Below, piece by piece: positions 8,343-46,442 of a DNA stretch of 64,000 bases. Source of the stretch: Candidatus Latescibacterota bacterium (GTDB lineage Bacteria; Latescibacterota; UBA2968); assembly GCA_965222605.1 (NCBI GenBank), contig OZ244960.1, positions 5,805,280 to 5,869,279 of the forward strand. Reading direction: 5' to 3'. Below the pieces are notes generated by a model. That model was not told the origin of the DNA. It saw only the letters and a program-made list of their open reading frames with translations, and did no database searches. Position 1 is the stretch's first letter. Every line of letters begins with the position of its first letter. The translations under genes and the position numbers were made by a program.

Positions 8343-8425
8343 GGTAGATAGGTTATTATGGGGAGGAAGAAGGTAGGGGAAATTTAAGGAAGAAATAGGA
8401 AGGTGAAAAGAGCAAAGTGCTACCA

Positions 8426-10243: not shown

Positions 10244-10341
10244 GATGCCTTTTATTTTTAACAACAACGAGTTCGCCCAGTCTCCACTGAGCGAACTCGT
10301 TTGGTTATGATCTGAGATTTTCACAGGTATCTCATTTGTCT

Positions 10342-11112: not shown

Positions 11113-11177
11113 GGGTAGTTCCTCCAAATGGATTTTTCGTGTGACGGTGAATGGAACTGTGAACTTCTCACAGATAT

Positions 11178-12053: not shown

Positions 12054-12260
12054 TGAAATTTCCTCCAGAAGAGGGTGAATGAGACACGCAAAGTGCCCGT
12101 GCCAAATGGATGTGATATTGAGCACAACAACTTACGAGAGATTTCCTCCTTTCTGTTGTGGGTGCGTGTTCTTGTGTGCTCTAATCTGAGGTATGATAAT
12201 ATAAAAGCGGTTGATTAGTCAATAAAAATAAGAGGTAAAATGTAAGAGAAGAGGGGATGG

Positions 12261-14009: not shown

Positions 14010-14156
14010 TGGGCGCGTTTGCGATATAAAGGTCTGAATTTACAGTAAGTTGCTTTGTTGTTGCAATAGACCTTATGCAAACGGTATGCCAGCACAGTGA
14101 ACTGGTCTGGACTGCGACCAGTCATGCTCGATTTACTCGCCTTCATACACCGATCC

Positions 14157-29537: not shown

Positions 29538-29557
29538 GCCATTATTGGGAGCAGACC

Positions 29558-30634
29558 ATGAAAACATACCGCGCAGCACTGATTGGATGCAGTCGGATGG
29601 GAGCATTTATCGACAATGAGGTGGACAACACGCTGGCGTATTCCCATGCAGCGGGATACGAGGCATGTGATCGAACGGATTTGGTCGCGTGTTCGGATCT
29701 GCGCGAAGATGTGATGGCGCAGGCGGGCGAGCGATATGGGGTTCCAAAATCGCGGCAGTACACGGATTACCGGGAACTTATCAATACGGAAGAGCCAGAT
29801 ATTGTGAGCGTGGCCACGCAGCCAGAGCAGCGCGCAGAAATTGTGGTGTATGCTGCCGAGCATGGGGCAAAGGCGATTTATGCGGAGAAGGCGATGGCGG
29901 CTTCTATGGCGGATGCCGATGCGATGGTCGATGCGTGTGAGCGCAATGGTGTGTTTTTCAATCTGGGGACCAATCGGCGATGGGATCGAGGGTATGACAG
30001 TATGAAAGCGGTGATTGACAGCGGGCGTATTGGGCAATTGCGGTCGCTGATTATTCATCAGACGAGTTCTCTTTTCAATGGTGCGAGTCACAGTTTTGAT
30101 CTGTTGATGCGCCTCAATAGCGACCATCCCGCATTGTGGGTGCAGGCGCATTTATCACAGGGGGCGGATGAGATTGAGGGGAATATTTTGAAGGCGGATC
30201 CGGTGGGGCATGGGATTATCCAGTTTGAAAATGGCGTGACGGCTTATGCCCTCAATTCCGGACGCGGTTTGGAGGTTGAAGCTGTGGGCGATGCGGGGGT
30301 TGTGACGAGTTTGCAAAATGGCGCGGGGTGGCAGGTGCGCGAGGTGGTTGGGCACGATCACAGGGGACGGAATGTGCTGGGGTTTGGGGATTTTCCAGAG
30401 GTGGAGCCGACGAGTTCTACGGTACATTTGATTGAAGACCTGGCACACGCGCTGGATACGGGCGAACCGACGCGGTGCGGTGTGCGGTTGGCACATGCCA
30501 ATCAGGAATTGATTTTTGCTTTTGTCGAATCGCACCAGCGAGGGGGCGAGCGGGTGCATCTGCCGTTGAAAGACTGTCCCTATCGCATGGATCGCGGTTT
30601 TGCACCCAGGCAACCGAAGTTTGAACGCGAATAA
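29558..30634 (+). CDS. Gfo/Idh/MocA-family oxidoreductase
   Basis: Start MKTYRAALIGCSRMG at 29558 (track N-terminal extension overlaps previous gene); AEKAMA motif. Confidence 0.85.
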   Translation: MKTYRAALIGCSRMGAFIDNEVDNTLAYSHAAGYEACDRTDLVACSDLREDVMAQAGERYGVPKSRQYTDYRELINTEEPDIVSVATQPEQRAEIVVYAAEHGAKAIYAEKAMAASMADADAMVDACERNGVFFNLGTNRRWDRGYDSMKAVIDSGRIGQLRSLIIHQTSSLFNGASHSFDLLMRLNSDHPALWVQAHLSQGADEIEGNILKADPVGHGIIQFENGVTAYALNSGRGLEVEAVGDAGVVTSLQNGAGWQVREVVGHDHRGRNVLGFGDFPEVEPTSSTVHLIEDLAHALDTGEPTRCGVRLAHANQELIFAFVESHQRGGERVHLPLKDCPYRMDRGFAPRQPKFERE

Positions 30635-30645
30635 AGGAGGTTATT

Positions 30646-31662
30646 GTGGAATATCGCGAGTTTGGACAGACGGGTTTGAAGGTTTCGGCAATCGGTTTTG
30701 GATGCTGGGAATTGGGCGGGGGGTATGGGTCTATTGATGACGCTGAGGTCGTTGCTGCGGTCAATCGCGCCATCGATTTGGGGATCAATTGTTTTGATAC
30801 GGCTCAGGGATATGGCAGTGGTACGTCTGAGCGGTTGCTTGCACGGGCATTGGGACCGAGGCGTAAAGATGTGATTTTGGTCACAAAGTTTGGTATTGGC
30901 TATAAACACGGCAGGGACAGCAGCAAAGAGATGGTCCACCGGGCGATTGAGCAAAGTTTGGAGATGCTGAATACGGATTACGTCGATGTGTATCTGGTGC
31001 ATTGGCCCGACCGCGATACGCCTTTTGAAGAGACCATGGGTGCTTTGGAAGAAATCGTCCAGGCCGGGAAGACGCGGTTTGTGGGGCTGTCGAATTTTAC
31101 GCCTCCAGAAATTGCGCGGTGTATGGATGCGCGTCACGTGGATGTGTTGCAATACGGCTGTAATTTGTTCGATCGCCGCCATGTGAAATGGACGTTTCCA
31201 TACGCGGAAGCAAATAATGTGGGGGTGATGACGTACGGTTCTCTGGCTTATGGCTTGCTCGCTGGCGCGTTTACAGAAGATACGGTTTTTGAAGATAATG
31301 ATTGGCGGAGAAGAGGCGGTAGCAATACGACTTTGCGCCTGTTTGATCCGGGTATATTCCAGCGCAATGTTCGGGCGGTGAATGAGTTGAAGAAAATCGC
31401 CGCAGGACTGGGCAAAAATCTGCCGCATATGGCGCTGAATTGGGTGTTGTCTCACCAGGCTGTGAGCACGGCACTGGTGGGTGCGCGAAAGCCGGAAGAG
31501 GTTGAAGACAATATGGGTGCTCTGGGGTGGACATTGGGTGAGGATACAAAGCGGGCAATTGATAGGGTTTTTGCCAAATACGAGATTGATACTGCGCCCA
31601 ATAAGTGGGGCGAAACTGATGCGAGGTGGATAGATATTGATCCCGCGGAGTGGACAGGTTGA
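30646..31662 (+). CDS. Aldo/keto reductase
   Basis: GTG start after AGGAGG; motifs DTAQGYGSGTSE, LVHWPD, GLSNF. Confidence 0.9.
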   Translation: MEYREFGQTGLKVSAIGFGCWELGGGYGSIDDAEVVAAVNRAIDLGINCFDTAQGYGSGTSERLLARALGPRRKDVILVTKFGIGYKHGRDSSKEMVHRAIEQSLEMLNTDYVDVYLVHWPDRDTPFEETMGALEEIVQAGKTRFVGLSNFTPPEIARCMDARHVDVLQYGCNLFDRRHVKWTFPYAEANNVGVMTYGSLAYGLLAGAFTEDTVFEDNDWRRRGGSNTTLRLFDPGIFQRNVRAVNELKKIAAGLGKNLPHMALNWVLSHQAVSTALVGARKPEEVEDNMGALGWTLGEDTKRAIDRVFAKYEIDTAPNKWGETDARWIDIDPAEWTG

Positions 31663-31669
31663 GGAGGAT

Positions 31670-32617
31670 ATGATGGATAACGTACGCGTTGGTGTAATTG
31701 GATGTGGTGGCCGGGGCAGGGGACACATCCGAATCTTGAATGAATTTGAAGATGTGCATCTCGCAGCGGTTTGCGATCCGGTTGTGGAGATCCGCGAGTC
31801 CGTGTGTGATGAGTATGAGATCGAAGGACAATACGGCGATGTTTCCGCGTTGCTCGAAGGCGAGGCTCTCGACGCTGTTTTTGTCGCGCCTCCTGCACAC
31901 TTAAATGCCACGCTTGCATTGCCGTGTCTGGAGGCTGGCGTAAATACCTTTTTGGAGAAACCACCGGGTTTGAGTCTGAAAGAAACCAAAGCGTTAAAAG
32001 CTGCATCTGAAGAAACGGATGCGAAAGCCATGGTGGGATGGAATCGGCGATTTCATCCGATTATTGTCGAGGCGCGCAATCTGGTGCTGGATCGCGGTCC
32101 CGTGACGCAATTGGTGGGGGAGTTCCACAAGAGTATCACGGAGTTGGGCAATTCGGGCAAATTTGCCGAGGTACTGATGGATTGTATGCTTTTTGAAACG
32201 CCGATTCACGCCATTGATACCATCCGCTTTTTGGCAGGTGCTGATGTTTCTGAGGTACACAGTGTGGTGCAGCGGTCTATGTCCGGCTATCGGGATGTAC
32301 ACGCGGCTCTCGTCGCGTTTGAAAATGGCGTTGTCGCGCAACTTATTCACAATTATACGACCAATGCCAGGCTGGAGCGTTATGAGATCCACGGGCACGA
32401 GATTTCGGCTTATATGGAGGGTGTGTCGCGCGGAGAGGTTTTTTGCGATGGTGAGAAGATGGCGTTGAGCGGGAATGGGTCGGGAACAGATGAACAGAAC
32501 CGATTTTTCATCGATTGCGTCAAAGAAGATCGCCCAGTCGCGCTTCCCGCGGCAAATTTGGATGAGGCGATTAAAACGATGGAATTGGCCGAGGCGATTA
32601 TGGCGGGGACGCGATAA
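31670..32617 (+). CDS. Gfo/Idh/MocA-family oxidoreductase
   Basis: Start MMDNVRVGVIGCGGRG after GAGGAGG; LEKPP motif. Confidence 0.85.
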   Translation: MMDNVRVGVIGCGGRGRGHIRILNEFEDVHLAAVCDPVVEIRESVCDEYEIEGQYGDVSALLEGEALDAVFVAPPAHLNATLALPCLEAGVNTFLEKPPGLSLKETKALKAASEETDAKAMVGWNRRFHPIIVEARNLVLDRGPVTQLVGEFHKSITELGNSGKFAEVLMDCMLFETPIHAIDTIRFLAGADVSEVHSVVQRSMSGYRDVHAALVAFENGVVAQLIHNYTTNARLERYEIHGHEISAYMEGVSRGEVFCDGEKMALSGNGSGTDEQNRFFIDCVKEDRPVALPAANLDEAIKTMELAEAIMAGTR

Positions 32618-32633
32618 AACCGGCTTCTTTCTA

Positions 32634-32662
32634 TTGACAATATTTTCCGAATCCCATACTTT
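32634..32662 (+). promoter_or_regulatory. Sigma-70-type promoter for tRNA-Pro
   Basis: TTGACA, 17 nt, TACTTT, ending 11 nt before the tRNA 5' end. Confidence 0.5.
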
Positions 32663-32673
32663 TAAATCAGAAA

Positions 32674-32750
32674 CGAGGTGTGGCTCAGTCCGGTAGAGCA
32701 CCTGCTTTGGGAGCAGGGGGCCGGGGGTTCAAATCCCTCCACCTCGACCA
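32674..32750 (+). tRNA. tRNA-Pro (anticodon UGG), CCA encoded
   Basis: Manual fold: acceptor CGAGGTG/CACCTCG, anticodon stem CCTGC/GCAGG with loop TTTGGGA, T-loop GGTTCAAATCC. Confidence 0.9.
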
Positions 32751-33012: not shown

Positions 33013-36000
33013 ATGCTCAAATCACTTGACCGCATGGGTACCTGGCGGACTTATTCTCTGGATAGCGGCCTTGCCGGGCTGCGCGTTGAACATATCGCCG
33101 AGGACAACGAGGGGTGTATCTGGTTCGCCACCTGGGACAACGGTGTTAGTCGCTTCGACGGGGACGAGTTCCGGAATTTTACCAAACAGGACGGCCTTGT
33201 TAATGATCATATTTATTTTGTTTCACAAGACAGTCAGAATCGATTGTGGTTCGGTACAGAAAAAGGCGTCTGCTGGTACGACGGGGTGGGTTTCCATTAT
33301 TTGAAGGGCGATGGGATCGCAGGCCGATCCGTGCAATCTATCTACGAAGATCGTCAGAGGCGTATATGGTTCGGTGGCACGAGTACCCTGGGGTATTACG
33401 ATGGTACTGTGTTTCACGACATGATTCCGCTCTACCTCCAGCACTACGAGCAGCCTCCTTCTCATCAGTGGGCCATGTGTTGGGGTATTACTCAGGATCC
33501 GCAAGGACACCTGTGGTTTGGCTTTGACCGCCTCATCCGCTTTGATGGTGAATTCTTCCACCGCTATGAAGAGAAAGACGGTTTTCCCTACGAAGGGACC
33601 GCCTATGTCGTGGGCCAGGACCATACCGGCAAGGTGTGGATTGGTCGGTTCGGAAATCGAGATGAACTCTGGTGCTATGCCGATGGTGCCTTCCAATCTG
33701 TTCAGGTAAATTTGGGAGGCTGGCTACGCAAAATTCAGTGTGACCGTGAAGGGCGAATGTGGTTCTGCACCTCGGAAGGGGTATTGTATCAGGACAGTGA
33801 CGGATTCAGCAGGTTTCCCCTTGCCGATGGCTTGTCCCATCCCGCAGTCAAAGCCGTGTTTCAGGATCGCGATCATCAGTATTGGTTCGCCACCTGGAGC
33901 GGCGTTGGACTTTACGATGCTCATAGTATCAGCGTTTTTGACCTCGGTAAGGCTTTTCCCAAAGACAAAGAGCCGAGCGAAATCTCGCAGATCGTACAAG
34001 ATCGGCAAGGTGATATATGGATCGGGTGTGTGTCACCCCTTCTTACTGACCTGCCCCAAAGCGTCGCCCGCTTTGATGGCGAGCACTTTACATTTGTAGG
34101 CTCCGAGCAAGGCTTTGATATCAACAACTGTTTCTCTATGTACGAGGACCACGAGGGGTATCTGTGGTTTGGCGGCCTCAACGGCCTGTTCCGCTACGAT
34201 GGGCAGGAAATAAAAAAAATAAAAATAGCTGCGGGTTCAGGCGACAGGAGTATCAGTACAATTACCCAGGACGCGCAAGGTCAATTCCTTTTCGGCTATT
34301 GGGGAAAGGGCACCTATAAAACTAAAATCGGATTCAAAAAAGAAGAGTTTTCGACCAGCCCATTAGAGATCATTTACCAGCGGGGCGAGGCGTTCCAAAC
34401 CATTTTTGTGGAGGATGAAAAGAAAGATATTTTAGACCGCATTGGCACTGTGATTGCCGGGCGCAACAGCGAGATCTATTTTCATTTGGCCTGCCACAAT
34501 TTCTCAGTTGGCAACAGGGGCTTCGCTCGCTGGCATCCCGAAGATGGCCTTAAATTTTATGGAATTGAAGATGGTTTGATAGACCCCAAGGTCAACGACC
34601 TGCTATTAGACCGCGCAGGCAACCTGTGGATTGCCACTTTGAGCGGTCTCGTTCGTTTTGATGGCTACACTTTCCACACATTCACGACTGAAGACGGTCT
34701 GCCGAACAACCGCATTCGGTGTCTATTCGAGGATCGGCAAGGACACCTCTGGCTCGGGACAGAAGGCGGTGTAGTTCACTACGATGGTCAGCTTTTTCAG
34801 ACCATCAAGTCACCGCATATAGGATCGGTTTCTCAGATATTCGAAGATCGCGACGGAACGTTCTATTTTGGCACTGCTCTGGGTTCTATAATACGCTATC
34901 GCCAGCGGCAAACTCCGCCCCAGATTCGCCTGATTCAGGTTGTCGCCGATCAGGTCTATGAGAACTTAGACGACATCATCTTGTCCACGGCAGGACAGCA
35001 GGTGATTTTCGAATACAAGGGGATGAGTTTTTCCACACATCCGCGCGACATGCTCTATGTCTATCGCCTGAAGGGATACGACTCCGACTGGCGTCCAGCG
35101 ACCCGAAAGATGCGGGCCTTTTACCGGGGCTTGCCGCCGGGAGACTACACCTTTCAGGTCAGGTCTATAGATCGCGATCTCAATTATTCAGAGATCGCGC
35201 AGGTAAGACTCTCGATAACGGCGGACCCGCGTATCGAAGCATTTACGGACATAATCAACCGTCGAGGAAGCCAGAAGTTTATCGGGCATAGCGAGGCTCT
35301 GCGCGAGTTTCTAATCAATCTTGAAAAAATCGCATCTACCAATATAACTGTGCTGATTATGGGCGAGACAGGTGTGGGCAAGGGACTGGCAGCACGGGTG
35401 CTACACGCGCTGAGTAACCATAGCGATGGGCCTTTTATAGAGGTTAGTTGCGGTGCATTGCCCGAGGCGTTGATCGATAGCGAACTTTTTGGTCACGAGC
35501 AAGGGGCTTTTACCAGCGCTATTTCCCGCAGACTGGGCAGGGTGGAACTGGCGGAGGGTGGCACGCTCTTTTTGGATGAGATCGGCGATATGGCTGTGGA
35601 AACGCAGGTCAAGCTGTTGCGCTTGCTGGAAGAGGGCACGTTTGAGCGCGTTGGGAGCAGCGAGACGCTGACGACAAAGACGCGGATTGTGGCAGCGACG
35701 AATCGCAATCTGGAAGAGATGGTCAGCACAGATGATTTTCGGGAGGATCTCTATTACCGCCTCAATGCCTTTCCGATGTATTTGCCGCCGCTGCGCGAGC
35801 GCAAGGAGGATATACCATACCTTGCCGAGTTTTTCAAGAACCGCATGGCGACACATTTAGATAAGCAAATCGGCCCTTTGACAGTAGAGGTTATAGAAGT
35901 GCTGCAAGCCTACCATTGGCCAGGCAATGTGCGAGAACTGGAGCATACGATAAACCGCGCCGTAATCGTGTGTCAGGATTCTCGAATTGACGTTGGGGAT

Positions 36001-36219
36001 ATCGGCCTCATAAGCAGTAGCTCTCCTGTTTTTACAGACCGAGAAATCGTGCCTTTGGCTGAATATGAACGCGATTACATACTCAAAGTGCTCAAAGCGA
36101 CCAACTATCAGATAAAAGGTGTTCATGGTGCAGCGGCACTGCTGGGACTACACCCTTCGACGCTGTATGGGAAAATGAGAAAACAGGGTATCAAACGCCC
36201 AGGTAAAGATCATATATAA
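33013..36219 (+). CDS. Sigma-54-dependent transcriptional activator with N-terminal two-component-regulator propeller and Y_Y_Y sensor region
   Basis: 1068 aa; repeated W/F-x-G-T/S..G propeller blades, Y_Y_Y segment (YVYRLKGYDSDW...GDYTFQV), AAA+ core GETGVGKG, GAFTSA loop, DEIGDM, R-finger region, C-terminal Fis-type HTH; no signal peptide, TM segment or receiver domain. Confidence 0.9.
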   Translation: MLKSLDRMGTWRTYSLDSGLAGLRVEHIAEDNEGCIWFATWDNGVSRFDGDEFRNFTKQDGLVNDHIYFVSQDSQNRLWFGTEKGVCWYDGVGFHYLKGDGIAGRSVQSIYEDRQRRIWFGGTSTLGYYDGTVFHDMIPLYLQHYEQPPSHQWAMCWGITQDPQGHLWFGFDRLIRFDGEFFHRYEEKDGFPYEGTAYVVGQDHTGKVWIGRFGNRDELWCYADGAFQSVQVNLGGWLRKIQCDREGRMWFCTSEGVLYQDSDGFSRFPLADGLSHPAVKAVFQDRDHQYWFATWSGVGLYDAHSISVFDLGKAFPKDKEPSEISQIVQDRQGDIWIGCVSPLLTDLPQSVARFDGEHFTFVGSEQGFDINNCFSMYEDHEGYLWFGGLNGLFRYDGQEIKKIKIAAGSGDRSISTITQDAQGQFLFGYWGKGTYKTKIGFKKEEFSTSPLEIIYQRGEAFQTIFVEDEKKDILDRIGTVIAGRNSEIYFHLACHNFSVGNRGFARWHPEDGLKFYGIEDGLIDPKVNDLLLDRAGNLWIATLSGLVRFDGYTFHTFTTEDGLPNNRIRCLFEDRQGHLWLGTEGGVVHYDGQLFQTIKSPHIGSVSQIFEDRDGTFYFGTALGSIIRYRQRQTPPQIRLIQVVADQVYENLDDIILSTAGQQVIFEYKGMSFSTHPRDMLYVYRLKGYDSDWRPATRKMRAFYRGLPPGDYTFQVRSIDRDLNYSEIAQVRLSITADPRIEAFTDIINRRGSQKFIGHSEALREFLINLEKIASTNITVLIMGETGVGKGLAARVLHALSNHSDGPFIEVSCGALPEALIDSELFGHEQGAFTSAISRRLGRVELAEGGTLFLDEIGDMAVETQVKLLRLLEEGTFERVGSSETLTTKTRIVAATNRNLEEMVSTDDFREDLYYRLNAFPMYLPPLRERKEDIPYLAEFFKNRMATHLDKQIGPLTVEVIEVLQAYHWPGNVRELEHTINRAVIVCQDSRIDVGDIGLISSSSPVFTDREIVPLAEYERDYILKVLKATNYQIKGVHGAAALLGLHPSTLYGKMRKQGIKRPGKDHI

Positions 36220-36324
36220 TCTCAAGGATCATATATGATCTTTTGTTGTTAAAATACTATTATTAAGATACTTAAGTAATACATAAGAGTTAGACTGATT
36301 ATTTTTGAGATCATATACGATCTC
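36208..36324. promoter_or_regulatory. Three related palindromes, candidate activator (UAS) sites
   Basis: GATCATATATAATC (36208-36221, overlaps activator stop), perfect palindrome GATCATATATGATC (36227-36240), GAGATCATATACGATCTC (36307-36324); 100-215 bp upstream of the sigma-54 promoter. Confidence 0.45.
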
Positions 36325-36353
36325 GAAAATATAAAATACAGTCTAACTCTTAT
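36283..36353. repeat. Perfect 15-bp inverted repeat bracketing the third palindrome
   Basis: ATAAGAGTTAGACTG (36283-36297) and CAGTCTAACTCTTAT (36339-36353). Confidence 0.8.
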
Positions 36354-36423
36354 TTTTTTATAATAATTCTATCCTGATTAAAAATAACATCTTACGAGTA
36401 TAGTTATTTGGGTCCATTCACAG

Positions 36424-36439
36424 TGGCACACATATTGCA
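36424..36439 (+). promoter_or_regulatory. Sigma-54 (-24/-12) promoter
   Basis: TGGCAC-acata-TTGCA, an exact match to TGGCAC-N5-TTGCW, 65 nt upstream of the ATG at 36504 in an AT-rich intergenic region. Confidence 0.75.
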
Positions 36440-36503
36440 TTATATCTATGTGTTTAATGCCATAAAGGAGAAGATTTAGACTTCAAAGAAAGGAAGGTAG
36501 AGT

Positions 36504-37346
36504 ATGAAACATTTTTTGGTATTTGTGGTCATTGCAAGTTGCTTGTGGTTATCACATCCGGCGGCGCATGCCGAGTCAGATAGGGCATTTTTGAAGAAGA
36601 CCATTAAGGAAAACTTGGAGGGCGCGAGTTCGTCGGAAATCATTTTTGCCAGGTACGGGCGGCGCACCATCACGTTGAAACCCCTCGCGACCAGCCAGTA
36701 TGAAATGCGCCTGGCACTCTGGACTTTGATGGGCGAGCCGGTTGAACTTTATGAATGCCTCATGCCGCACTTGGGGAGCCTGATCTTTGGAGCGAACGAC
36801 GGTTACGCCAATAGAGTTGAAATTGTCAGCGTCGGTGATAAAAACGAGACTGACATATCATTCTACGGCGATAGCAAAGTGTACGTCAGCCAGGACGTGT
36901 TGGACAAAATCGATTACGTGGACTTTAGCTTTTCGATCGTGACCTATGACCTTTTTGAATTGCCGGACGAGTTCTATTCGAAAGACAATAGCATGCGTTT
37001 TGGTACTTTTAAAGCGTATATCCATTTGAAGAACCCTGGTGTTTTGGCTTCACCCGGCAAATGGGGCTGGGACACGCCAGGAAGTCCTGAATGGGAAAAA
37101 TTTCTGTCGAAGTATCAATTTCCTTTGGATGAAGGTAAATACAAGTTGCCGGAAGACCATTACATGGACGAAAAGCAGGCTAAGGAGGCATTTCGCCGCA
37201 TGCGCTGGCGTTACCACAAAAAACAGGACTTATTCGTTAAAAACTGGTTCGATATTCATCATTTGCGCGTGAATCCGGACCGTATCCTGGACCTCATCCG
37301 CAAACACAGTCCTGAAGCCTACGCCGAGATCATGGAAAAAGAATAA
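36504..37346 (+). CDS. Secreted protein of unknown function (first gene behind the sigma-54 promoter)
   Basis: 280 aa; signal peptide MKHFLVFVVIASCLWLSHPAAHA; GGAAGG RBS; no recognisable domain. Confidence 0.6.
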   Translation: MKHFLVFVVIASCLWLSHPAAHAESDRAFLKKTIKENLEGASSSEIIFARYGRRTITLKPLATSQYEMRLALWTLMGEPVELYECLMPHLGSLIFGANDGYANRVEIVSVGDKNETDISFYGDSKVYVSQDVLDKIDYVDFSFSIVTYDLFELPDEFYSKDNSMRFGTFKAYIHLKNPGVLASPGKWGWDTPGSPEWEKFLSKYQFPLDEGKYKLPEDHYMDEKQAKEAFRRMRWRYHKKQDLFVKNWFDIHHLRVNPDRILDLIRKHSPEAYAEIMEKE

Positions 37347-37532
37347 AGCAAGTGAGGTGGAATATGAAACGTTTTTGGTTGTGCTTGAGGTGGATTGATG
37401 ATTTGCATTTTTCTACCTGGCTTGTGCAACAGAAAGGCGGTTTACTTATGAGAGGTCAAAGCATAAGTAAAGCAAGTTATCAGTACAAAATAAGACGTGC
37501 CTGTTTTTAAGACTACAAGAAAGGGGTTCAGT

Positions 37533-38303
37533 ATGTGGCGCATGTTTGTCGTCTTGGCCGTTGTGGTGAGTTGCTGGACGGTGTATTCTGTGTATTCCGA
37601 ACCGAGTTTTCCAATGCCTGAGATGGTGATGATTCCGTCGGGCAGTTTTCAGATGGGCTGTGTGTCGGGTAGGCGCTGCTCGGACGCTGAGAAACCTGTG
37701 CATGAAGTGATGATAGACTCGTTTGCCCTGTCGAAGTATGAGGTGACCTTTGAGGAGTATGATGCATTCACCGATGCGACGGGACGCGAGCGGGCAGACG
37801 ATGAAGGTTGGGGGCGTGGTCGGCGTCCGGTGATCAATGTTTCGTGGTTTGATGCGATGGCCTACACGCAGTGGCTGTCGTCACAGACGGGCAAGACCTA
37901 TCGTTTGCCGAGCGAGGCGGAGTGGGAGTATGCAGCGCGCGCGGGAACTGAGACGATGTTTAGCTGGGGGAATGATTCTGGTTACAACCGCGCCAATTGC
38001 AATGGCTGTGGCAGTCGGTGGGATAAAAAACAGACGGCACCAGTGGGATCATTCGAGGCCAATGGCTGGGGCCTTTACGACATGCACGGTAATGTATGGG
38101 AGTGGGTACGAGATTGTCGGAACGAGAGTTATAGGGGCGCACCGACAGATGGTTCTGCATGGATTGGAATTTGCTCTGAGCGCGTGTTGCGTGGTGGTTC
38201 GTGGTACTTCAGCCCGTGGGTCTTGCGGTCGGCGTATCGCGACTGGTACCCCTCCGGCTATCGGGACGACGTCATCGGTTTTCGAGTTGCCCGGTCTTTT
38301 TAG
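37533..38303 (+). CDS. Secreted FGE-sulfatase-fold (C-type-lectin-fold) protein, non-catalytic; DGR-target-like copy 1
   Basis: Start MWRMFVVLAVVVSCWTV (signal); MVMIPSGSFQMG, RPVINVSW, YRLPSEAEWEYAARAG, GLYDMHGNVWEW, RGGSW...GFRVARSF; no Cys pair after GGSW. Confidence 0.85.
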   Translation: MWRMFVVLAVVVSCWTVYSVYSEPSFPMPEMVMIPSGSFQMGCVSGRRCSDAEKPVHEVMIDSFALSKYEVTFEEYDAFTDATGRERADDEGWGRGRRPVINVSWFDAMAYTQWLSSQTGKTYRLPSEAEWEYAARAGTETMFSWGNDSGYNRANCNGCGSRWDKKQTAPVGSFEANGWGLYDMHGNVWEWVRDCRNESYRGAPTDGSAWIGICSERVLRGGSWYFSPWVLRSAYRDWYPSGYRDDVIGFRVARSF

Positions 38304-38326
38304 CTCCTGATTCTTTACATCTTTAC
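38277..38326 (+). repeat. Conserved 3' block, copy 1 (last 8 codons, stop, 23 nt non-coding)
   Basis: GGTTTTCGAGTTGCCCGGTCTTTTTAGCTCCTGATTCTTTACATCTTTAC; 49/50 identical to copy 2. Confidence 0.9.
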
Positions 38327-38426
38327 TTCATTTGTGGGGCTGGGGACTGGCGGGGGTTTTACGATTTTTTTAGCGACCACTATGATTGCACTTGAGTCGG
38401 TGAACAAGTATCTAAAGGAGGCATCT

Positions 38427-39163
38427 ATGTGGAACCATATTATGTTGACCATTTGTTCGGTGTTTGTGTTGACAGGTCCGGCATCGACTGGAGACATGAC
38501 CCGTGACCCGGACAAGGACTTCAATAAGCTAAGCACCGCAGGAAACCAACGCCCTCAAGGGATCTGGTCGAACGGAACGACCATGTGGGTGGTGGACTCC
38601 TATGACCAGAAAATTTATGCCTACAACCTGAGGACCAAAGCCCGTGACTCGAACAGGATGATAGCTGGGACCGCGAGAATCGTCCTGTGATGAATGTGAG
38701 CTGGGAAGATGCCCAGTCTTATGTTCGCTGGTTGTCTGGCAAGACGGGAAAACCCTATCGTTTATTGAGTGAATCGGAATGGGAGTATGTGGCGCGTGCA
38801 GGTACAGAGACGGCGTATAGCTGGGGGGATCATATTGGTGAAAACCGTGCCAATTGTGATGGTTGCGGCAGTCAGTGGGATGGTAAGCAGACGGCGCCAG
38901 TGGGATCATTCGCAGCCAATGGCTGGGGCCTTTACGACATGCACGGTAATGTAAGGGAGTGGGTGGAAGACTGCTATCATGGCAGCTATGCGGGCGCACC
39001 TACTGATGGAAGTGCACGGGAGTCTACGGAGGGGTGCTGGCGCGTGTTTCGTGGTGGTTCGTGGGACCTCGAACCGAGGAATTTGCGTTCGGCGTATCGC
39101 AGCAGAGGCACCACCGATGTTCGGTACTACAGCATCGGTTTTCGAGTTGCCCGGTCTTTTTAA
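38427..39163 (+). pseudogene. Two-frame chimera: signal peptide plus one WSNGTTMWV..KIYAY blade (38427-38690) joined out of frame to the C-terminal 60 percent of an FGE-fold gene (38648-39163); DGR-target-like copy 2
   Basis: AAGGAGG RBS before ATG 38427; FGE homology (DDSWDRENRPVMNVSW) starts about 38651 in the +1 frame; stop of frame 1 overlaps GTG/ATG at 38687-38692. Confidence 0.5.
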
Positions 39164-39186
39164 CTCCTGATTCTTTACATCTTTAC
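39137..39186 (+). repeat. Conserved 3' block, copy 2
   Basis: GGTTTTCGAGTTGCCCGGTCTTTTTAACTCCTGATTCTTTACATCTTTAC. Confidence 0.9.
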
Positions 39187-39195
39187 CTCTTTTGT

Positions 39196-39243
39196 GGGGG
39201 AGGGTGGGGGGTGGGGGCTTGGGGGTTGGTTTTAGACGGGGGG
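39196..39243 (+). repeat. G-tract cluster (potential G-quadruplex) downstream of copy 2
   Basis: G-runs of 5, 3, 6, 5, 5 and 6 within 48 nt; a shorter version sits at 38336-38356 after copy 1 and GGGGG at 39834-39838 after copy 3. Confidence 0.7.
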
Positions 39244-39343
39244 TTTTACGATTTTTTTTCGAGGGAGGGTTTACGTGGTATGTTCGAAGAATTTTCCCCA
39301 TTGAACAATCCTGTTATAGGATAGGATATCAGGAGTTAGGCTT

Positions 39344-39802
39344 TTGAATGACCAGTCAAATGCTCGGGCACGTCAAACTGGACCGGCATTAGAGGCACAT
39401 TACCAGTTCATTCTGTGGCTGGTGCCCACCCTGGAGCGATTTCCCCGCAATCAGTGGGATGCAGAGAAGACAGCTCCAGGGGGCTCGTTTAGTGCCAACA
39501 GATGGGGTCTCCACGACATGCACGGTAATGTGGCAGAGTGGGTGCAAGATTGTTGGAACTGGGATTACAAGGGGGCACCTGCAGACGGTTCTGCGTGGGA
39601 GTCTGGGGACTGTTCTGAGCGCGTGTTGCGTGGTGGTTCGTGGATAAGCGAACCCTATTCTGATTTCAGTCTTGCTATCTGCTCGGCATGTCGGGCCAGC
39701 ATACTCCTCAAATCTCGCCAAAGAAGGATTTTCGGTCATATAGTTGGAGGTGAAATTTTCCGAAGTAGCACCGTCGGTTTTCGAGTTGTCCGGTCTTTTT
39801 AG
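39344..39802 (+). CDS. Chimeric ORF: Avd/four-helix-bundle-like N-terminal 37 codons fused in frame to the C-terminal part of an FGE-fold domain (copy 3)
   Basis: TTG start after AGGAG; ALEAHYQFILWLVPTLERFPRNQ then WDAEKTAPGGSFSANRWGLHDMHGNVAEWV...RGGSW...GFRVVRSF; may be a non-functional fusion. Confidence 0.5.
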   Translation: MNDQSNARARQTGPALEAHYQFILWLVPTLERFPRNQWDAEKTAPGGSFSANRWGLHDMHGNVAEWVQDCWNWDYKGAPADGSAWESGDCSERVLRGGSWISEPYSDFSLAICSACRASILLKSRQRRIFGHIVGGEIFRSSTVGFRVVRSF

Positions 39803-39825
39803 ATCCTGATTCTTTATTTTTTCCC
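39776..39825 (+). repeat. Conserved 3' block, copy 3 (diverged)
   Basis: GGTTTTCGAGTTGTCCGGTCTTTTTAGATCCTGATTCTTTATTTTTTCCC. Confidence 0.8.
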
Positions 39826-39853
39826 TCTTGTGTGGGGGAGGAAGGAGAAAACC

Positions 39854-41509
39854 ATGCGTAAACGAATCACGACTGTTGTTATCATCGTCACCACGCTTTT
39901 GATCTATCCGCTGTCTCAGGTTCCTGGGAGTAGTCACGATACATGTGATACGCCGCCTAACAGGGCCCCTATGGCGAAGGGCACCATTGATCCTGTGACG
40001 CTGGGTGTTAATCCTGATACTATAGATGTATCGGACAAATTCAAGGATGATGACGGAGATACGCTGACATACAAGGTATTAGTGAGTGCAGACGCCATTG
40101 TAAAGGCGCATATGGATAGCAGTAAAGTGATAATCGGTCGGGACAGTGTGTTCCGTGCGACAATTACCGTGGTGGCTACAGACCCAGACAGTTTGAAGGC
40201 AACGCAGACGATAGCAGTGAAGGTGAATCAAGCTCCTTTGGCGGTGGACTCGATTGCTTCCGTGATGCTGGGTGTTGATCCCGACACTGTGGATGTATCG
40301 GACAAATTTAGCGATGCGGACGGAGATACACTGACATACAAGGCGACGGTGAGTGATACAGCTATTGCAACGGTGAGTATGGATGATGGCAAGGTGACCA
40401 TCAAGCCTGGGACGAAGGAGGGCAATACGATGGTGACGGTGACAGCGGAAGATCGGTGGGGATTGCAAGCAAAACAATACATTGCTGTGGTACAAGTGGA
40501 TCCGATAATCAAAGTCATTGAACACATAATCATTGTGTTTGTAGTAACTGGAATTGGAGCTTTGCTTTTAAAATTCGCCTTTAAATTTAATTTTAACTTT
40601 GATACTCGTATAGGTGAAAAAGGTAAGGTTCAGGAAAATAAAGATGCGCTTAGGAGGCTCCAGTATATCGTCGGAGTTCTGGGTATCGGACTGCCGCTTC
40701 TCCTGCTCATTGCATGTCTGTACGATTACGGGTCTAATACTATGATGGTAGAAGATTTCAGTAAGTGTGTCAAAAATTCAATCAGTGCGTATTACGATAG
40801 CGCGAGTCGAGACGTATTCGTTGGGATTCTATGCGTAATCGGTGCATTTCTGTTTGCCTATAAAGGCTATGACACTCGGGATGACCAGGCGAGCCATCTC
40901 GCGGGATTGTCGGCGTTCGGAGTTGCACTCTTCCCCGCGACAAGCAACAACAGAGCGGTAGAGGCGATGCATTACTTGTCTGCCATATTGCTCTTTTTGA
41001 CGCTGGCCTATATTTCGCGGTATCGTTTTACAAAATCGAAATGTGAGTCTATACGACCAGGAACGCTCAAGGCGAAACGGAACCAGGTGTATAATTGGTG
41101 TGCTTATATGATGATATTTGGCCTGCTTGCTATCGGTGCATTTAAGTGCTTGAAATTGCCCGCGATGAACGACTACAAGATGATGTCCGCCGCCGTGCTA
41201 CTTTTGGTACTGACCTATTTTTTAATAAATGCCTATTTTTCATGGCATTCTACAGAAAAGGCTAAACAGAATAAGAAAAGCGCACATGTGATAACATTTG
41301 GCCTCTTCGCTATTGGAGTTGGGGTTTGGACACAATATTATCTGACTTCGTTTCCCTTTATGTTTGTGACCGAAACCGTGCTGTTTTTAGCGTTTGGCAT
41401 TTCGTGGTTGGTCAAGAGTGACACATTGATATTATTACGCGATAAAGATGAAAATGATGTCGATGATGATCAAAATGGTGCCGATGACGATGAAAATGAT
41501 AGTGCGTAG
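39854..41509 (+). CDS. Secreted/membrane protein: two tandem Ig-like (cadherin/Big-like) domains plus a C-terminal polytopic membrane domain and acidic tail
   Basis: Start MRKRITTVVIIVTTLLIYPLS; two ~95-aa repeats each with D.DGDTLTYK; then at least 6 hydrophobic segments; tail DKDENDVDDDQNGADDDENDSA. Confidence 0.65.
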   Translation: MRKRITTVVIIVTTLLIYPLSQVPGSSHDTCDTPPNRAPMAKGTIDPVTLGVNPDTIDVSDKFKDDDGDTLTYKVLVSADAIVKAHMDSSKVIIGRDSVFRATITVVATDPDSLKATQTIAVKVNQAPLAVDSIASVMLGVDPDTVDVSDKFSDADGDTLTYKATVSDTAIATVSMDDGKVTIKPGTKEGNTMVTVTAEDRWGLQAKQYIAVVQVDPIIKVIEHIIIVFVVTGIGALLLKFAFKFNFNFDTRIGEKGKVQENKDALRRLQYIVGVLGIGLPLLLLIACLYDYGSNTMMVEDFSKCVKNSISAYYDSASRDVFVGILCVIGAFLFAYKGYDTRDDQASHLAGLSAFGVALFPATSNNRAVEAMHYLSAILLFLTLAYISRYRFTKSKCESIRPGTLKAKRNQVYNWCAYMMIFGLLAIGAFKCLKLPAMNDYKMMSAAVLLLVLTYFLINAYFSWHSTEKAKQNKKSAHVITFGLFAIGVGVWTQYYLTSFPFMFVTETVLFLAFGISWLVKSDTLILLRDKDENDVDDDQNGADDDENDSA

Positions 41510-42043
41510 GAGTAATTGTGCAGAAACCGAGCCTGATAGAATGTCTTGCCATTAAACGAAAGAGAAAAATGTAGTTAGAGTTTCGGGATAGCACTCATCA
41601 TCAAGAACCCAAAATCTCCAATGTCTTTTTTCGCTGGCGAATACAGGTTTGTCCTCTAAGCACAGCCACCAATTCAAATAATCCCGGCCCAAACCCAACG
41701 CCGCAAAGTGCAAGGCGCGTTAATGCGTTTGGAACCCAACAGGTCGGGTTCACCAGCCAATGTGTACGTGTGGCGTCGCACGCAACGATAGTAGGCGAAA
41801 ATTGATAAAAGAAGAGACAGCATGCGAAGAGTGATCACAAGTATTTTTGTTCTATTTTTACTGGGATTCTCCACAGTTGCATTCGCCCAACTGCCACCGG
41901 AGGTCATGGTAGATAAACATCTGATGCAGGCAGAACAGCTACTTGAGAAAAAAGACTATATAGTTGCGTTCAACATGATGGACAAAATCATCGCGCTGCA
42001 AAAAGAGCACAGTCTCACATTGCCAGACGAGTTCCACTTTAAG

Positions 42044-42052
42044 TATACACAG
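42044..42052. repeat. Target-site duplication, left copy
   Basis: TATACACAG immediately before the left inverted repeat. Confidence 0.85.
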
Positions 42053-43126
42053 ACGTGATGTGTGACTTTAAATAGCGAAAAAGAGGTTCCTCGGCTATCT
42101 TGAATTGTTCACTAAACAAGAAGCCATTCAACGAAAGGAACCTCCAATGTATAATTTAGACCTTTTTGTCATTGCAATCTACTGTTTTATTGAAGACGAA
42201 CTTTATTCGGCTTTCTGTAAGGTACATGGCAAGCCCCGTCAAGCAGGCTTTGAGCCCGGTCTAAGTGATGCCGAATGTCTCACCATAGAAATCGTGGGTC
42301 ACTTTCTGGGATATTCAAGCCAGAAAAAACTTTATGAGCAGATGAAAGAACACTTCATAGATTGGTTTCCCACTTTGAAAGACCGTCCTGCCTTTGTGCG
42401 TCAATGTGCCAATTTGTGGGTTGTCAAGATGTGGATGCAACAGCGGATTGTTGCCAGCTTGGAAGGGCATCAGGCATCCTGCCAGATCATAGATACGCTA
42501 CCCTTACCGATCTGTAAACTGGCAAGGCGACATTATCGCAAGATATTTACAAGAGAGCCAGTCTTTGAGTTCCCACCCCCTTCAAAAGGCTTCTGTGCTG
42601 CCAAAAGCGAAGCGTATTTTGGTTTTAAGGGTGGCCTGAGGATCACGGATTATGGCCTTATTGTCCACGCGCCGATCTTGAAAGCGTATGGACACGACAA
42701 GAACTGCCGAGAGGCACTCCTTGATGGCACAATGGGAGATACAACCGTCTTGGCCGATGCGGCCTTTATGGATTTGGACTGGCAAAAAAGGTGCTTTGAT
42801 ACCTACCGAATACGCATAAAGACACCCTTAAAGTCCAATATGAAAGACAATCCTGAACGCACCCCTTTCATTTTGCCCAAAGCGAAGAAAGCCACAAGGC
42901 GATTAGTCGGAGCGGTGTACAACTTCGCAGAAGTTCAACCGTTTATGCACAATTGACAGAACGCTTGCATATTGCCCGCATGAAAGTGCGAGATGCATGG
43001 CATTTATTGAACTTGTGGCATACCAAAATCTTAACCCATACTATGTGTGTCTTTCTCAATATCATCAATTATCGAGACCCTCTTGATTTTGATGGCCTCG
43101 TGCAATTTTGAAGTCACACATCGCGT
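42053..43126 (+). mobile_element. IS982-family insertion sequence (1074 bp)
   Basis: Terminal inverted repeats ACGTGATGTGTGACTTTAAA (42053-42072) and TTTGAAGTCACACATCGCGT (43107-43126), 18/20 complementary; 9-bp direct repeats outside. Confidence 0.85.
42147..43111 (+). pseudogene. IS982-family DDE transposase with a frameshift near 42900-42950
   Basis: MYNLDLFVIAIYCFIEDE...LSDAE...IIDTLPLPIC...GFCAAKSEAYFGFKG...LADAAF in frame 1 (stop 42956); conserved C-terminus STVYAQLTERLHIARMKVRDAW...continues in another frame to a stop inside the right IR. Confidence 0.75.
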
Positions 43127-44123: not shown

Positions 44124-46442
44124 ATGCGTAAACAGATTCTGTTTCTCTTATCAACACTCGCGCTTTTGATATATCCGCTGTCTCTTTCGGGACAGAATAG
44201 TACGGCAGGTGATCAAGACCTTACCCCGGACTTTGATGGGGATGGTCAGGTTGGCTTCCCTGACTTTTTGGCGTTTGTGGGTCAGTTTGGGGCACGTGAG
44301 GGGGATGGGCGTTATGATGTCAGATATGATCTGGATAGTGATGGCGAAATTGGATTTTCCGATTTTCTGCTCTTTAGTGCCAGCTTTGGCAAAGGGGAGC
44401 CTGCCTCTGGCGGTGATGGTGCAACGATGGTTGCTATTCCGGATGGGAACCTGCGTGCTGCTATTGAGGCTATTCTCAACAAGGTGAGTGGTGCGCCGAT
44501 CACTCAGGGTGAGATGGCGGCCTTGACGCGCCTTGATGCCCGGAATGCGAATATCAAGGACTGGGCCGGGCTTGAGTTTGCGACTAACCTGATAGATCTG
44601 AATCTTGAAGACAACAACCTCTCGGATGTATCTGCGTTGTCTGGCTTGACTCGTCTGGAAGTGCTGAATCTTGGGTCCAACGACCTCTCAGATGTGTCTG
44701 CGTTGTCGGGCTTAACCAACCTGACATTTCTGAATCTTTCTGACAACAGTATCTCGGACCTCACGCCCCTATCGAGTTTGACTAACCTGACAACGCTGGA
44801 TCTTTCCGGCACCGGCGTCAGGGATTTGTCAGCGTTGTCTGGCTTGACCAATCTGGAATCGCTGGATCTTGCTAACAACAGGATCACGGATGTATCTGTA
44901 TCGTCATTGTCAGTTTTGACCAATCTGAGGTCGTTGGAACTTTCCTCCAACTTCATTGGTGATGTATCTGCATTGTCAGTTTTGACCAATCTGAGGTCGT
45001 TGGATCTTTCCTCCAATTTCATCAGGGATGTGTCCGCGCTGTCTGGCTTGGTCAATCTGACGGATCTGGATCTTTCCTTCACGAGCATCAGTGATGTGTC
45101 AGTGCTGTCTGGCTTGATCAATCTGGAATCGCTGGATCTTTCCTTCACCAGTATCAGTGATTTGTCAGTGCTGTCTGGCTTGATCAATCTGGAATCGCTG
45201 GATCTTTCCGGCACCGGTATCAGGGATTTGTCAGCGTTGTCTGGCTTGACTAATCTGACAAGTCTGAAACTTTACAAAACCAGTATCTCAGACCTCGCAC
45301 CTCTGGTCGCAAACACGGGATTGGGCAGTGGAGATGAGATTGATGTGAGAGAAACTCCGTTGAGTGACACATCACGCAAAACGCATATTCTATCCCTTCT
45401 GCGTAGAGGAGTTGAGATTTCTTTTTATGTAAGTATCCCAGATATTAATCTGCACGCTGTTATTGAGGATAGTCTCGGCAAGGCGCAAGGGGCACCAATT
45501 GCGGTAGCTGAAATGGCGGCCTTGACGCGCTTTAGTGCCCGGGATGCGAATATTAGGGACTTAACAGGGCTTGAGTTTGCTGCTAATCTGGTATGGTTAC
45601 ATCTTGGTTCCGGTGTGATTGATCCGTTTTCCAACAGCAACGAGATATCCGACATCTCGCCCCTTTCTGGCTTGACCAACCTGACTTATCTGAATCTTTT
45701 TCTCAACGATGTCTCGAATATCACCCCATTATCAGGCTTGACCCGTCTGGAATGGCTGAATCTTGCCAACAACAGCATCAGTGATGTGTCCGCGCTGTCA
45801 GGCTTGACCCGTCTGGAAGGGCTGAATCTTAACAATATGAACATCACAGATGTGTCAGCACTATCGGGCTTGACCCGTCTGGAATGGTTGCGTCTTACAT
45901 TCAGCGACATTGTTGATGTGTCCGCGCTGTCAGGCTTGACCAACCTGACTTTTCTGTTTCTTGGTTACACCAACATCTCGAATATCACACCATTATCAGG
46001 CATGACCAATCTGGAAGAACTGCGTCTTAACAATAACAACATCAGTGATGTGTCCGCACTCTCAGGCTTGACCCGTCTGAATTACCTGGTGCTTACCCGC
46101 AACAACATCAGTGATGTGTCCGCACTCTCAGGCTTGACCAATCTGGAACAGCTGTGGCTTTACAACAACAGCATCTCGGATCTTGCGCCTCTGGTGGCAA
46201 ACACGGGATTGGGTACTGGAGATGTGGTTGGTGTGCAGAATAATCCGTTGAGTGCCATATCGCTCAACACGCATATTCCAGCCCTTCAAGACAGAGGAGT
46301 TGAGGTGCGTTTTGGCGCGTTGAAGCCCGCGGTGGAGAAGGAGGAATCCTCAGGGCTTGAGGAGTGGGAGGCAGGAGATTATATTTTTCGCAGGCAGGTG
46401 GAGAAGGGAAAGGACGCGCTCAAATCCGCGACAGAGCAGTAA
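44124..46442 (+). CDS. Secreted dockerin-like plus double LRR-module protein
   Basis: 772 aa; signal MRKQILFLLSTLALLIYPLS; two EF-hand/dockerin-like DxDGDGxVGFxDF repeats; two LRR modules, each with the cap LRAAIE...EMAALTRL and tail ...THI..L..RGVE. Confidence 0.8.
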   Translation: MRKQILFLLSTLALLIYPLSLSGQNSTAGDQDLTPDFDGDGQVGFPDFLAFVGQFGAREGDGRYDVRYDLDSDGEIGFSDFLLFSASFGKGEPASGGDGATMVAIPDGNLRAAIEAILNKVSGAPITQGEMAALTRLDARNANIKDWAGLEFATNLIDLNLEDNNLSDVSALSGLTRLEVLNLGSNDLSDVSALSGLTNLTFLNLSDNSISDLTPLSSLTNLTTLDLSGTGVRDLSALSGLTNLESLDLANNRITDVSVSSLSVLTNLRSLELSSNFIGDVSALSVLTNLRSLDLSSNFIRDVSALSGLVNLTDLDLSFTSISDVSVLSGLINLESLDLSFTSISDLSVLSGLINLESLDLSGTGIRDLSALSGLTNLTSLKLYKTSISDLAPLVANTGLGSGDEIDVRETPLSDTSRKTHILSLLRRGVEISFYVSIPDINLHAVIEDSLGKAQGAPIAVAEMAALTRFSARDANIRDLTGLEFAANLVWLHLGSGVIDPFSNSNEISDISPLSGLTNLTYLNLFLNDVSNITPLSGLTRLEWLNLANNSISDVSALSGLTRLEGLNLNNMNITDVSALSGLTRLEWLRLTFSDIVDVSALSGLTNLTFLFLGYTNISNITPLSGMTNLEELRLNNNNISDVSALSGLTRLNYLVLTRNNISDVSALSGLTNLEQLWLYNNSISDLAPLVANTGLGTGDVVGVQNNPLSAISLNTHIPALQDRGVEVRFGALKPAVEKEESSGLEEWEAGDYIFRRQVEKGKDALKSATEQ

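Follow-up and report, generated by a model that had tools for sequence, protein, structure and literature searches.

The 3′ ends of neighbouring genes in a Latescibacterota chromosome raise a question: were they written by a diversity-generating retroelement (DGR), and, if so, is any such element still writing them? The genes lie in a 64,000-nt stretch of DNA from Candidatus Latescibacterota bacterium (contig OZ244960.1, positions 5,805,280 to 5,869,279 of the forward strand), here called the window; it is 64 kb (~1%) of a contig of 6,338,376 bp, and coordinates are positions in the window unless a related locus is named. Two FGE-sulfatase-type genes in the window end in a hypervariable patch. 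Comparison with relatives reveals that these patches, VR1 and VR2, are copies of the template repeat (TR) of a DGR, that the changes in VR1 are restricted to template adenines, that the relatives retain the architecture of the intact cassette, and that the window retains the scar of its deletion. We conclude, with a confidence of roughly 85% in the reading as a whole, that VR1 and VR2 are variable regions (VRs) of a DGR whose cassette was deleted locally, and we infer that they are most probably frozen relics.

VR1, defined as the stretch homologous to the TR, spans 38176..38293 on the + strand, with a mutagenised core at 38205-38276; VR2 spans 39040..39153 on the + strand, with a mutagenised core at 39065-39136. 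The codons that the first-pass annotation had quoted for the two cores match the window sequence exactly. Of the 72 positions in the core, 26 differ between the copies; 14 of these are first codon positions, 7 are second, and 5 are third. The copies are 64% identical in the core, versus 96% in the 5′ flank (25 nt before the core, 38180-38204), 98% in the 3′ flank (50 nt after the core, 38277-38326, extending beyond the stop codon), and 75-80% in the upstream gene bodies. This profile, a hypervariable patch with sharp edges inside a homogenised block, is not that of ordinary paralogue divergence. The window contains the 5′ anchor CGTGGTGGTTCGTGG three times, versus 0.17 expected by chance, and the third site, at 39629, which had been absent from the earlier list, marks a disrupted third copy. 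Scoring whether one copy has A at a differing site was dropped as a DGR test on reasoning, since ~50% of sites are expected to do so with or without a DGR.

The template was recovered from relatives. A scan of GTDB genomes with both VR flanks, in a collection that does not include the window's genome, returned 39 stretches, among them nine Latescibacterota loci with ten matches to the VR scaffold; the non-coding 3′ flank of these loci is closely related to that of the window, and near-identical in some. Eight of the ten matches have the standard 72-nt core, and the two in L019 have 66- and 78-nt cores. No Latescibacterota TR was found among the 39 stretches, and the A-rich matches were ruled out as the cognate TR, as they belong to unrelated DGRs, cyanobacterial and other. 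From the Latescibacterota VRs, together with the two VRs of the window, a TR consisting of AAC/AAT codons was inferred; the real TRs recovered subsequently are 2-5 bases away from it.

Recovery proceeded through the accessory gene avd. In locus L011, the open reading frame (ORF) directly downstream of the VR starts ...ARQTGPALEAHYQFIVWLVPTLERFPRSQKF, and the same 37 residues are encoded at 39344-39454 in the window. When this ORF of L011 was used as a protein query, more than 1,700 homologues with Pfam bAvd came back, some of them titled "diversity-generating retroelement protein Avd". In particular, the full-length homologue P0004 passes the NCBIfam NF033474 "DGR protein Avd" equivalog model (111 bits, cutoff 80), and its N-terminus is identical to the window avd fragment at 36 of 37 residues. 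The contigs encoding P0004 (L041-L045, related metagenome contigs) contain five intact cassettes, each in the order FGE-type target, avd, 361-aa reverse transcriptase (RT) gene, TR. The RT carries RVT_1 and the motifs LPIGNLTSQ...YVDD, and the TR, which begins at the RT stop codon, is a non-coding copy after the RT gene. Both VR1 and VR2 align with these TRs. The TR layout is GGTGGTTCGTGG-N72-GGTTTTCGAGTTGCCCGCACGC, GGTTTTCGAGTTGCCCGCACGC being the TR-type 3′ continuation; the TR flanks are identical to the VR flanks, and the TR core reads AAC AAC AAA CCG AGG AAC TTG CG(G/T) TCG GCG AAT CGC AAC AGG AAC ACC ACC GAA AA(T/C) CGG AAC AAC AAC AAC.

These relatives differ in their distance from the window. 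The flanks of L042 are 94.8% identical to the window (28503-32712), and Latescibacterota chromosomes assembled from metagenomes are syntenic with the window at 80-81% nucleotide identity. The targets of the relatives include PKD/CarboxypepD_reg-FGE and kinase-FGE architectures. A more distant DGR, in L046, has an RT that is 83% identical and a TR that differs from the relevant TR at about 12 non-adenine positions; given that so many non-adenine differences have already accumulated at that RT identity, distant DGRs could not have written VR1. L046 itself is a 5.24-Mb circular genome from the same sample series, whose DGR region (7187-15322) comprises two avd genes and three targets, two of the Ser/Thr-kinase-FGE type and one that is a short FGE protein. 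In L042, a group II intron RT/maturase (RVT_1, Intron_maturas2, HNH) directly precedes the intact DGR, at L042:4721-6508; in the window, the gene cluster shared with the L042 flanks is followed by a sigma-54 activator.

Alignment of VR1 with the TR indicates adenine-specific mutagenesis. The test covered an alignment of 116 bases, made up of the core with 27 bases on its 5′ side and 17 on its 3′ side, over which the L042 TR has 33 adenines and 83 other bases. VR1 has 22 mismatches to this TR, at 22 of the 33 adenines and 0 of the 83 other bases (Fisher p = 7e-16). The five TRs differ mutually at third-codon core positions 24, 45, 57, and 69, with further variation at position 27 in L044, at position 86 in the 3′ flank of L043, and, when L047 and L049 are counted in, at position 18. 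VR1 agrees with L042 at every TR-polymorphic position, and three such positions are among the 83 non-adenine bases at which the two are identical. VR2 has 16 mismatches at adenines and 3-5 at non-adenines, the latter number varying with the TR variant and the 5′ boundary, which fits an older copy that has drifted within a pseudogene. Control TR/VR pairs from intact cassettes behave similarly, with 20 mismatches at A and 1 elsewhere in L042, and 19 and 1 in L041. Across 15 related VRs, the mean column entropy is 1.42 bits at TR adenines versus 0.25 bits elsewhere, and 30 of the 34 highly variable columns are TR adenines.

Comparison of strains leads to the same result. The 90% cluster of the first target protein (gene 1, described below) has three members, which differ almost solely within residues 225-248. 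The corresponding contigs, L047/L048 and L049, are 96-97% identical to the window over the neighbouring genes; the body of the gene differs between orthologues at 11-23 of 645 bases, and the 72-nt core at 21-25 bases, of which 17-21 are TR adenines. For L047 and L049 against the window, the body count is 16-23, so that 2-4% of the body is changed, versus about 30% of the core. DGR-type adenine mutagenesis, proposed by the first-pass annotation from the two copies alone, is thus supported by both checks that it had suggested, comparison with a template and comparison among strains, in each case by sequences from outside the window.

Two of its finer points change once the template is in hand. 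It had taken every difference between VR1 and VR2 to be compatible with a template A; 23 of the 26 lie on TR adenines, and the other three, at core positions 18 (C/T), 24 (G/T), and 42 (G/A), are non-adenine in all recovered TRs, positions 18 and 24 being third-codon positions that are themselves polymorphic between TRs. It had also described P, LRSAYR, R, and IGFR as an invariant scaffold. The Y (TAT) of LRSAYR and the I (ATC) of IGFR lie over the template codons AAT and AAC; they are not scaffold, and their agreement between the copies is coincidental.

VR1 forms the C-terminus of an intact gene. Gene 1 (37533..38303, + strand) encodes a 256-aa FGE-sulfatase protein with a predicted C-type-lectin fold, and has an N-terminal hydrophobic segment that may be a signal or an anchor. 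Pfam PF03781 (FGE-sulfatase) matches residues 40-266 of the 268-aa ORF with E = 1e-60 and reaches the last residues; a PDB sequence search matches PvdO, FGE, and the Treponema denticola DGR variable protein TvpA (2y3c, E = 2.5e-16). The position of VR1 at the C-terminus of a protein with this predicted fold is that expected for a DGR target. The exact protein is present on a second contig. Immediately upstream of gene 1, at 36504-37346, lies a 280-aa ORF with no Pfam or NCBIfam match, which keeps its position in L001, L047/L048, and L049 and may be a conserved partner of the DGR target.

Where the homology to the TR ends, the VRs continue into an element of their own. This element, ~48 nt and pyrimidine-rich, is present after every VR in the window and in related loci, and is absent after the TRs, which continue CACGCTCGTCTGCCAG. 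Specifically, the element of VR1 (GTCTTTTTAGCTCCTGATTCTTTACATCTTTAC...) occupies 38294..38341 on the + strand and extends beyond the stop codon, the element of VR2 occupies 39154..39203 on the + strand and agrees with the family consensus in the alignment, and the element of the third copy (repeat family D13) occupies 39793..39837 on the + strand. The TR-homologous 3′ end of VR1, GGTTTTCGAGTTGCCCG, is intact, and the distal part of the VR1 element departs from the family consensus by about 5 substitutions, which lie in the candidate stem region. The hairpin predicted for the element by alifold is weak and almost without covariation (one covarying pair), and no inverted repeat of at least 6 nt was found after VR1; given this weak prediction, we only hypothesize that the element may be a target-recognition sequence, resembling an initiation-of-mutagenic-homing (IMH) or hairpin sequence.

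Downstream of gene 1, the window contains the wreck of a cassette. An 87-aa ORF (38427..38690, + strand) begins with a signal-like segment, contains a ~48-aa repeat once, and has no Pfam match; the sequence at 38500-38655 matches three tandem units in Latescibacteria locus L023. By its sequence, this ORF is what remains of the 5′ end of a repeat-protein gene. It runs out of frame into the 3′ half of a second FGE-sulfatase target, the two together forming a chimeric "gene 2". The FGE half (38657..39163, + strand; ORF 38690-39163, 157 aa) covers PF03781 profile positions 93-255 only and thus lacks the first ~92; a stop just upstream of 38657, where repeat family D4 starts, closes the FGE frame. 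This half, which carries VR2, is probably a pseudogene.

The region that follows the 3′ element of VR2 belongs to the missing cassette. Positions 39215-39343 correspond to the region upstream of avd in intact cassettes, and over 39215-39454, which begins before avd and ends with its codon 37, identity to L041-L045 is 89%. The avd stump (LNDQSNARARQTGPALEAHYQFILWLVPTLERFPRNQ) comprises the first 37 codons of the gene (39344..39454, + strand). It ends in a deletion junction, GCAATCAG (39447..39454, + strand), that side-by-side comparison identifies as an 8-nt microhomology common to avd and the FGE genes: avd reads CGCAGTCAG followed by AAGTTC, the FGE gene reads GGCAGTCAG followed by TGGGAT, and the window reads CGCAATCAG followed by TGGGAT. 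Homology to avd ends, and homology to the "CGSQW" region of FGE genes begins at 39447, the overlap being the 8-nt microhomology. In L043 and L044, the arrangement is still complete (avd, RT, TR, second FGE target, Big_9 gene), and the same Big_9 gene follows the avd-FGE fusion in the window, indicating a deletion of about 2.2 kb, as measured in L043 coordinates. Lost with it were the RT gene and the TR, along with the 3′-terminal two-thirds of avd and the 5′ half of the next target.

What remains of that downstream target is the third copy. The 3′ fragment of the third FGE target (39447..39802, + strand) is in frame with the avd stump, giving a 152-aa fusion ORF in which Pfam FGE-sulfatase covers residues 32-108 only. 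It retains TR-type flanks at 39617-39643 and 39776-39792, and is still VR-like at either edge of the core, for 12 bases at the start (39644-39655) and 15 at the end (39761-39775); in the middle, about 105 nt of unrelated sequence (39656-39760) stands in place of the central 45 bases. This foreign core has no DNA or protein match in the window or in L001-L046, besides an inverted match of 23 nt to the "TFEEYD" region of FGE genes, which is marginal, scoring 15 against a shuffle maximum of 14-17. The reverse complement of 39656-39760 has an open frame. An inverted gene fragment and a template-switch product are possible origins.

Other features surround the wreck. A DDE transposase (ORF 42105-42956) lies 2.3 kb downstream, and just before it, at 41745-42053, is a sequence of ~240-300 nt that recurs in many related loci at 69-84% identity (mostly 79-84%), three times in L041, and that is probably the end of an insertion sequence (IS) element common around these DGR loci. 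At L043:6360-6420, the VR 3′ element of the second target runs directly into a decayed internal avd fragment (CCCCGCAGTCAGAAGTTCCTG...), and this L043 deletion ends beside the same GCAGTCAG motif as the window junction, a hint that cassettes were once arranged in tandem and that the breakpoint recurs. A G-rich tract (GTGGGGGAGGGTGGGGGGTGGGGGCTTGGGGGTTGG) with several runs of at least 4 G on the coding strand separates the VR 3′ element from avd, at 39190-39240 and at the same place in L041-L045.

Searches of the window returned neither a template nor an RT. A low-stringency blastn search (word size 7) of 38100-38400 against the window returned three copies only, the third by its flanks, and a Hamming scan of the 64 kb with the inferred template, allowing up to 30 mismatches in 72, returned VR1 and VR2 only. 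RVT_1 was absent from Pfam scans of 20 large ORFs in the window, which identified housekeeping genes, the sigma-54 activator, leucine-rich-repeat and Big_9 proteins, the DDE transposase, and TnpB. A tblastn search with the cognate 361-aa RT of L042 returned no match at E<=1 in the 64 kb. With intact Avd as query (E<=1), the avd stump is the sole convincing match (97% identity, E = 1.6e-21), and a second match, near 58830, is at chance level (E = 0.41). With no DGR-clade RT, no TR of its own observed in the window, and avd reduced to a stump of 37 codons, the locus contains VRs that are the products of a DGR and not parts of an intact one. The TnpB/IS605 OrfB-like ORF (21896-23134, 412 aa) has Cas12f1-like TNB and OrfB_IS605 domains. 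The leucine-rich-repeat proteins, encoded at 44124-46442 (+) and 10342-12125 (-), consist of 66-nt (22-aa) tandem units, which account for most long direct-repeat families of the window.

In the established DGR mechanism, the RT-Avd complex misincorporates at adenines and the cDNA replaces the VR (PMC3240598, PMC5703328, PMC5758913). On this mechanism, and given the adenine-only mismatches, an RT-Avd complex would have reverse-transcribed a TR RNA of ~118 nt, with misincorporation at template adenines during cDNA synthesis, and the cDNA would have replaced the 3′ end of target genes of the FGE-sulfatase/C-type-lectin-fold type. About 14-16 codons of the ligand-binding face would thereby be randomised, and scaffold codons without adenine would stay untouched. 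Targeting would involve the end of the TR/VR homology (GGTTTTCGAGTTGCCCG) and the VR-only downstream element. The fate of the cassette, in contrast, is read directly in the window: the ~2.2-kb deletion over the 8-nt microhomology took out the RT gene and the TR together with parts of avd and of the third target, a second deletion made target 2 the chimeric pseudogene, and foreign sequence overwrote the VR of the third target. Gene 1 is intact and now has one fixed VR allele.

With the local cassette destroyed and a single fixed VR allele in gene 1, VR1 and VR2 are most probably frozen relics. Four observations are consistent with a frozen state. First, in L001, a 9.8-kb contig from a second assembly that is 99.5% identical overall, there are zero substitutions over 34524-39890, all three VR-like regions included. 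Second, ordinary substitutions have accumulated at non-adenine positions in VR2 and in the distal part of the VR1 3′ element. Third, among the members listed for the nearest RT and Avd clusters, none is on a contig of the length of the window's contig, which is only suggestive, as 15 of the 30 members of the closest RT cluster are unlisted. Fourth, the TR of L046 removes distant DGRs as possible donors. In the nearest RT clusters, many entries are fragments, 50-343 aa long, a pattern that fits frequent cassette decay, with truncation at contig ends not separated out.

Several points weigh against the reading as a whole. The TR used in the adenine test is borrowed from other strains or species (those whose L042 flanks show the 94.8% identity) and not taken from the window's genome; the evidence from the closest RT cluster covers half of its members (15/30); and the 64 kb read is ~1% of a 6.3-Mb chromosome, in a class of elements known to act on remote targets (PMC5758913). 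The lack of drift at non-adenine positions of VR1 points to a recent writing event, and, L001 being nearly clonal over the stretch, its identical VRs say little about rate. Finally, two related strains appear to have kept changing their VRs after losing the RT. At L047:10951-11460 and L049:2301-2810, gene 1 is followed by an avd::RT fusion with an identical deletion junction in both strains; about 1.06 kb has been lost, including roughly 88% of the RT gene, and the TR is intact. Despite the shared junction, the VRs of the two strains differ at 20 TR adenines, and the TR and VR of L049 share a private G-to-A variant at -18. Homing thus seems to have continued after the local loss of the RT, which suggests, for L047 and L049, an RT supplied in trans.

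One alternative is that VR1, and perhaps VR2, are live remote targets, which would still be rewritten with RT, Avd, and TR RNA provided in trans by an intact cognate cassette at another place on the chromosome. We consider this possible, though unlikely. In its favour, VR1 has 0 non-adenine mismatches to a known TR variant and an intact GGTTTTCGAGTTGCCCG end, related contigs from the same samples hold several intact cassettes whose TRs are near-identical and whose VRs have the same 3′ element, the L047/L049 strains show different VRs behind one RT deletion with the covariation at -18, and both remote targets and trans action are documented for DGRs (PMC5758913). Counting against it, the one other assembly that is near-identical to the window has unchanged VRs, none of the members listed for the closest RT and Avd clusters is on a contig of the length of the window's contig, the distal part of the VR1 element has its substitutions in the candidate stem region, and VR2 lies in a pseudogene with non-adenine changes. 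Weighing these points, we favour frozen relics over live remote targets by about two to one. A broader form of the same idea, to be regarded as slightly more doubtful still, is a distributed DGR network in Latescibacterota, in which one or a few master cassettes would serve orphan VRs and RT-less TR/VR satellites in trans via the ~48-nt element, with VR1 live; if it existed, local decay of a cassette would be tolerated, the function being supplied elsewhere.

An explanation without a retroelement fares far worse. Ordinary paralogues could in principle have C-terminal loops under diversifying selection and flanks kept identical by gene conversion; we reason that positively selected loops are common in paralogous surface proteins, and that the comparison of VR1 with VR2 is by itself not diagnostic, about half of the differing sites including A by chance. 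This explanation is effectively refuted by the placement of all 22 VR1 differences on the 33 adenines of an independently found TR (p = 7e-16), and is further opposed by the nature of that TR, a non-coding copy after an RT gene, by the avd stump at the locus, and by the extension of the identity into non-coding 3′ sequence. The least probable proposal, that the third copy (39447-39837) is the TR of a still-functional minimal DGR, draws on its position after the avd start, its two TR/VR flanks, and its lack of a complete gene, and is refuted by a core that is not adenine-rich and is unrelated to VR1 and VR2, by a VR-type 3′ element in place of the TR-type continuation, by ~200 nt of FGE coding sequence upstream of the flank (74-85% identical to other targets), and by the absence of an RT from the window (tblastn).

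Compared with known systems, the orphaned VRs of the window resemble those of the Treponema denticola DGR. Gene 1 matches the variable protein of that element, TvpA (PDB 2Y3C), at the E value given above, and both systems have a TR made of AAC/AAT codons; the T. denticola element likewise has several targets, some of them not adjacent to the RT (PMC5758913). The two differ in that the window's targets have no nearby RT or TR and their cassette is visibly deleted, in that the host is a member of the Latescibacterota and not a spirochaete, and in that the intact relatives have the order target, avd, RT, TR, with a TR that starts at the RT stop codon. The mechanistic prototype, the DGR of Bordetella phage BPP-1 (mtd-avd-TR-brt), shares adenine-specific mutagenic retrohoming from TR to VR, the Avd accessory protein (the Avd of the relatives passes NF033474), and a TR/VR homology whose end is a short block containing G+C, with VR-only sequence beyond it. 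The counterpart in BPP-1 is the IMH plus a hairpin/cruciform that homing requires (PMC3240598). Here, in contrast, the system is chromosomal and not phage-borne, the target is an FGE-type C-type-lectin protein and not Mtd, the TR follows the RT gene instead of preceding it, and the VR-only 3′ element is ~48 nt long and pyrimidine-rich, with a weakly predicted hairpin.

In the catalogue of Wu et al. 2018, FGE-sulfatase proteins (CLec1, category "b"), with TvpA as type example, form the largest target category, at 19% of DGRs, and short targets consist of the FGE domain alone or of that domain fused to extra domains (PMC5758913). The targets of the window belong to this category; the catalogue differs in listing functional sets of RT, TR, and VR, and surveys of that type leave out, by design, VRs whose cassette is deleted. 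Our literature search found no paper treating DGRs in Latescibacterota.

The locus leaves the known mechanism unchanged; its decay is unusually well resolved, and its relatives hint at trans-acting networks. For annotation, it means that gene 1 should be read as a DGR-diversified binding protein and not, as domain searches suggest, as a formylglycine-generating or PvdO-like enzyme. For DGRs as a family, it is a breakpoint-resolved example of how such an element dies: a microhomology deletion took the RT and the TR and left a functional target with one fixed allele. Orphan VRs of this kind are invisible to surveys that begin with the RT, and the historical reach of DGRs is therefore underestimated. 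The related contigs form a natural series, from intact cassettes through RT-deleted cassettes that keep the TR to fully orphaned targets, and this series could test how far DGRs reach in trans and which 3′ sequence defines a target.

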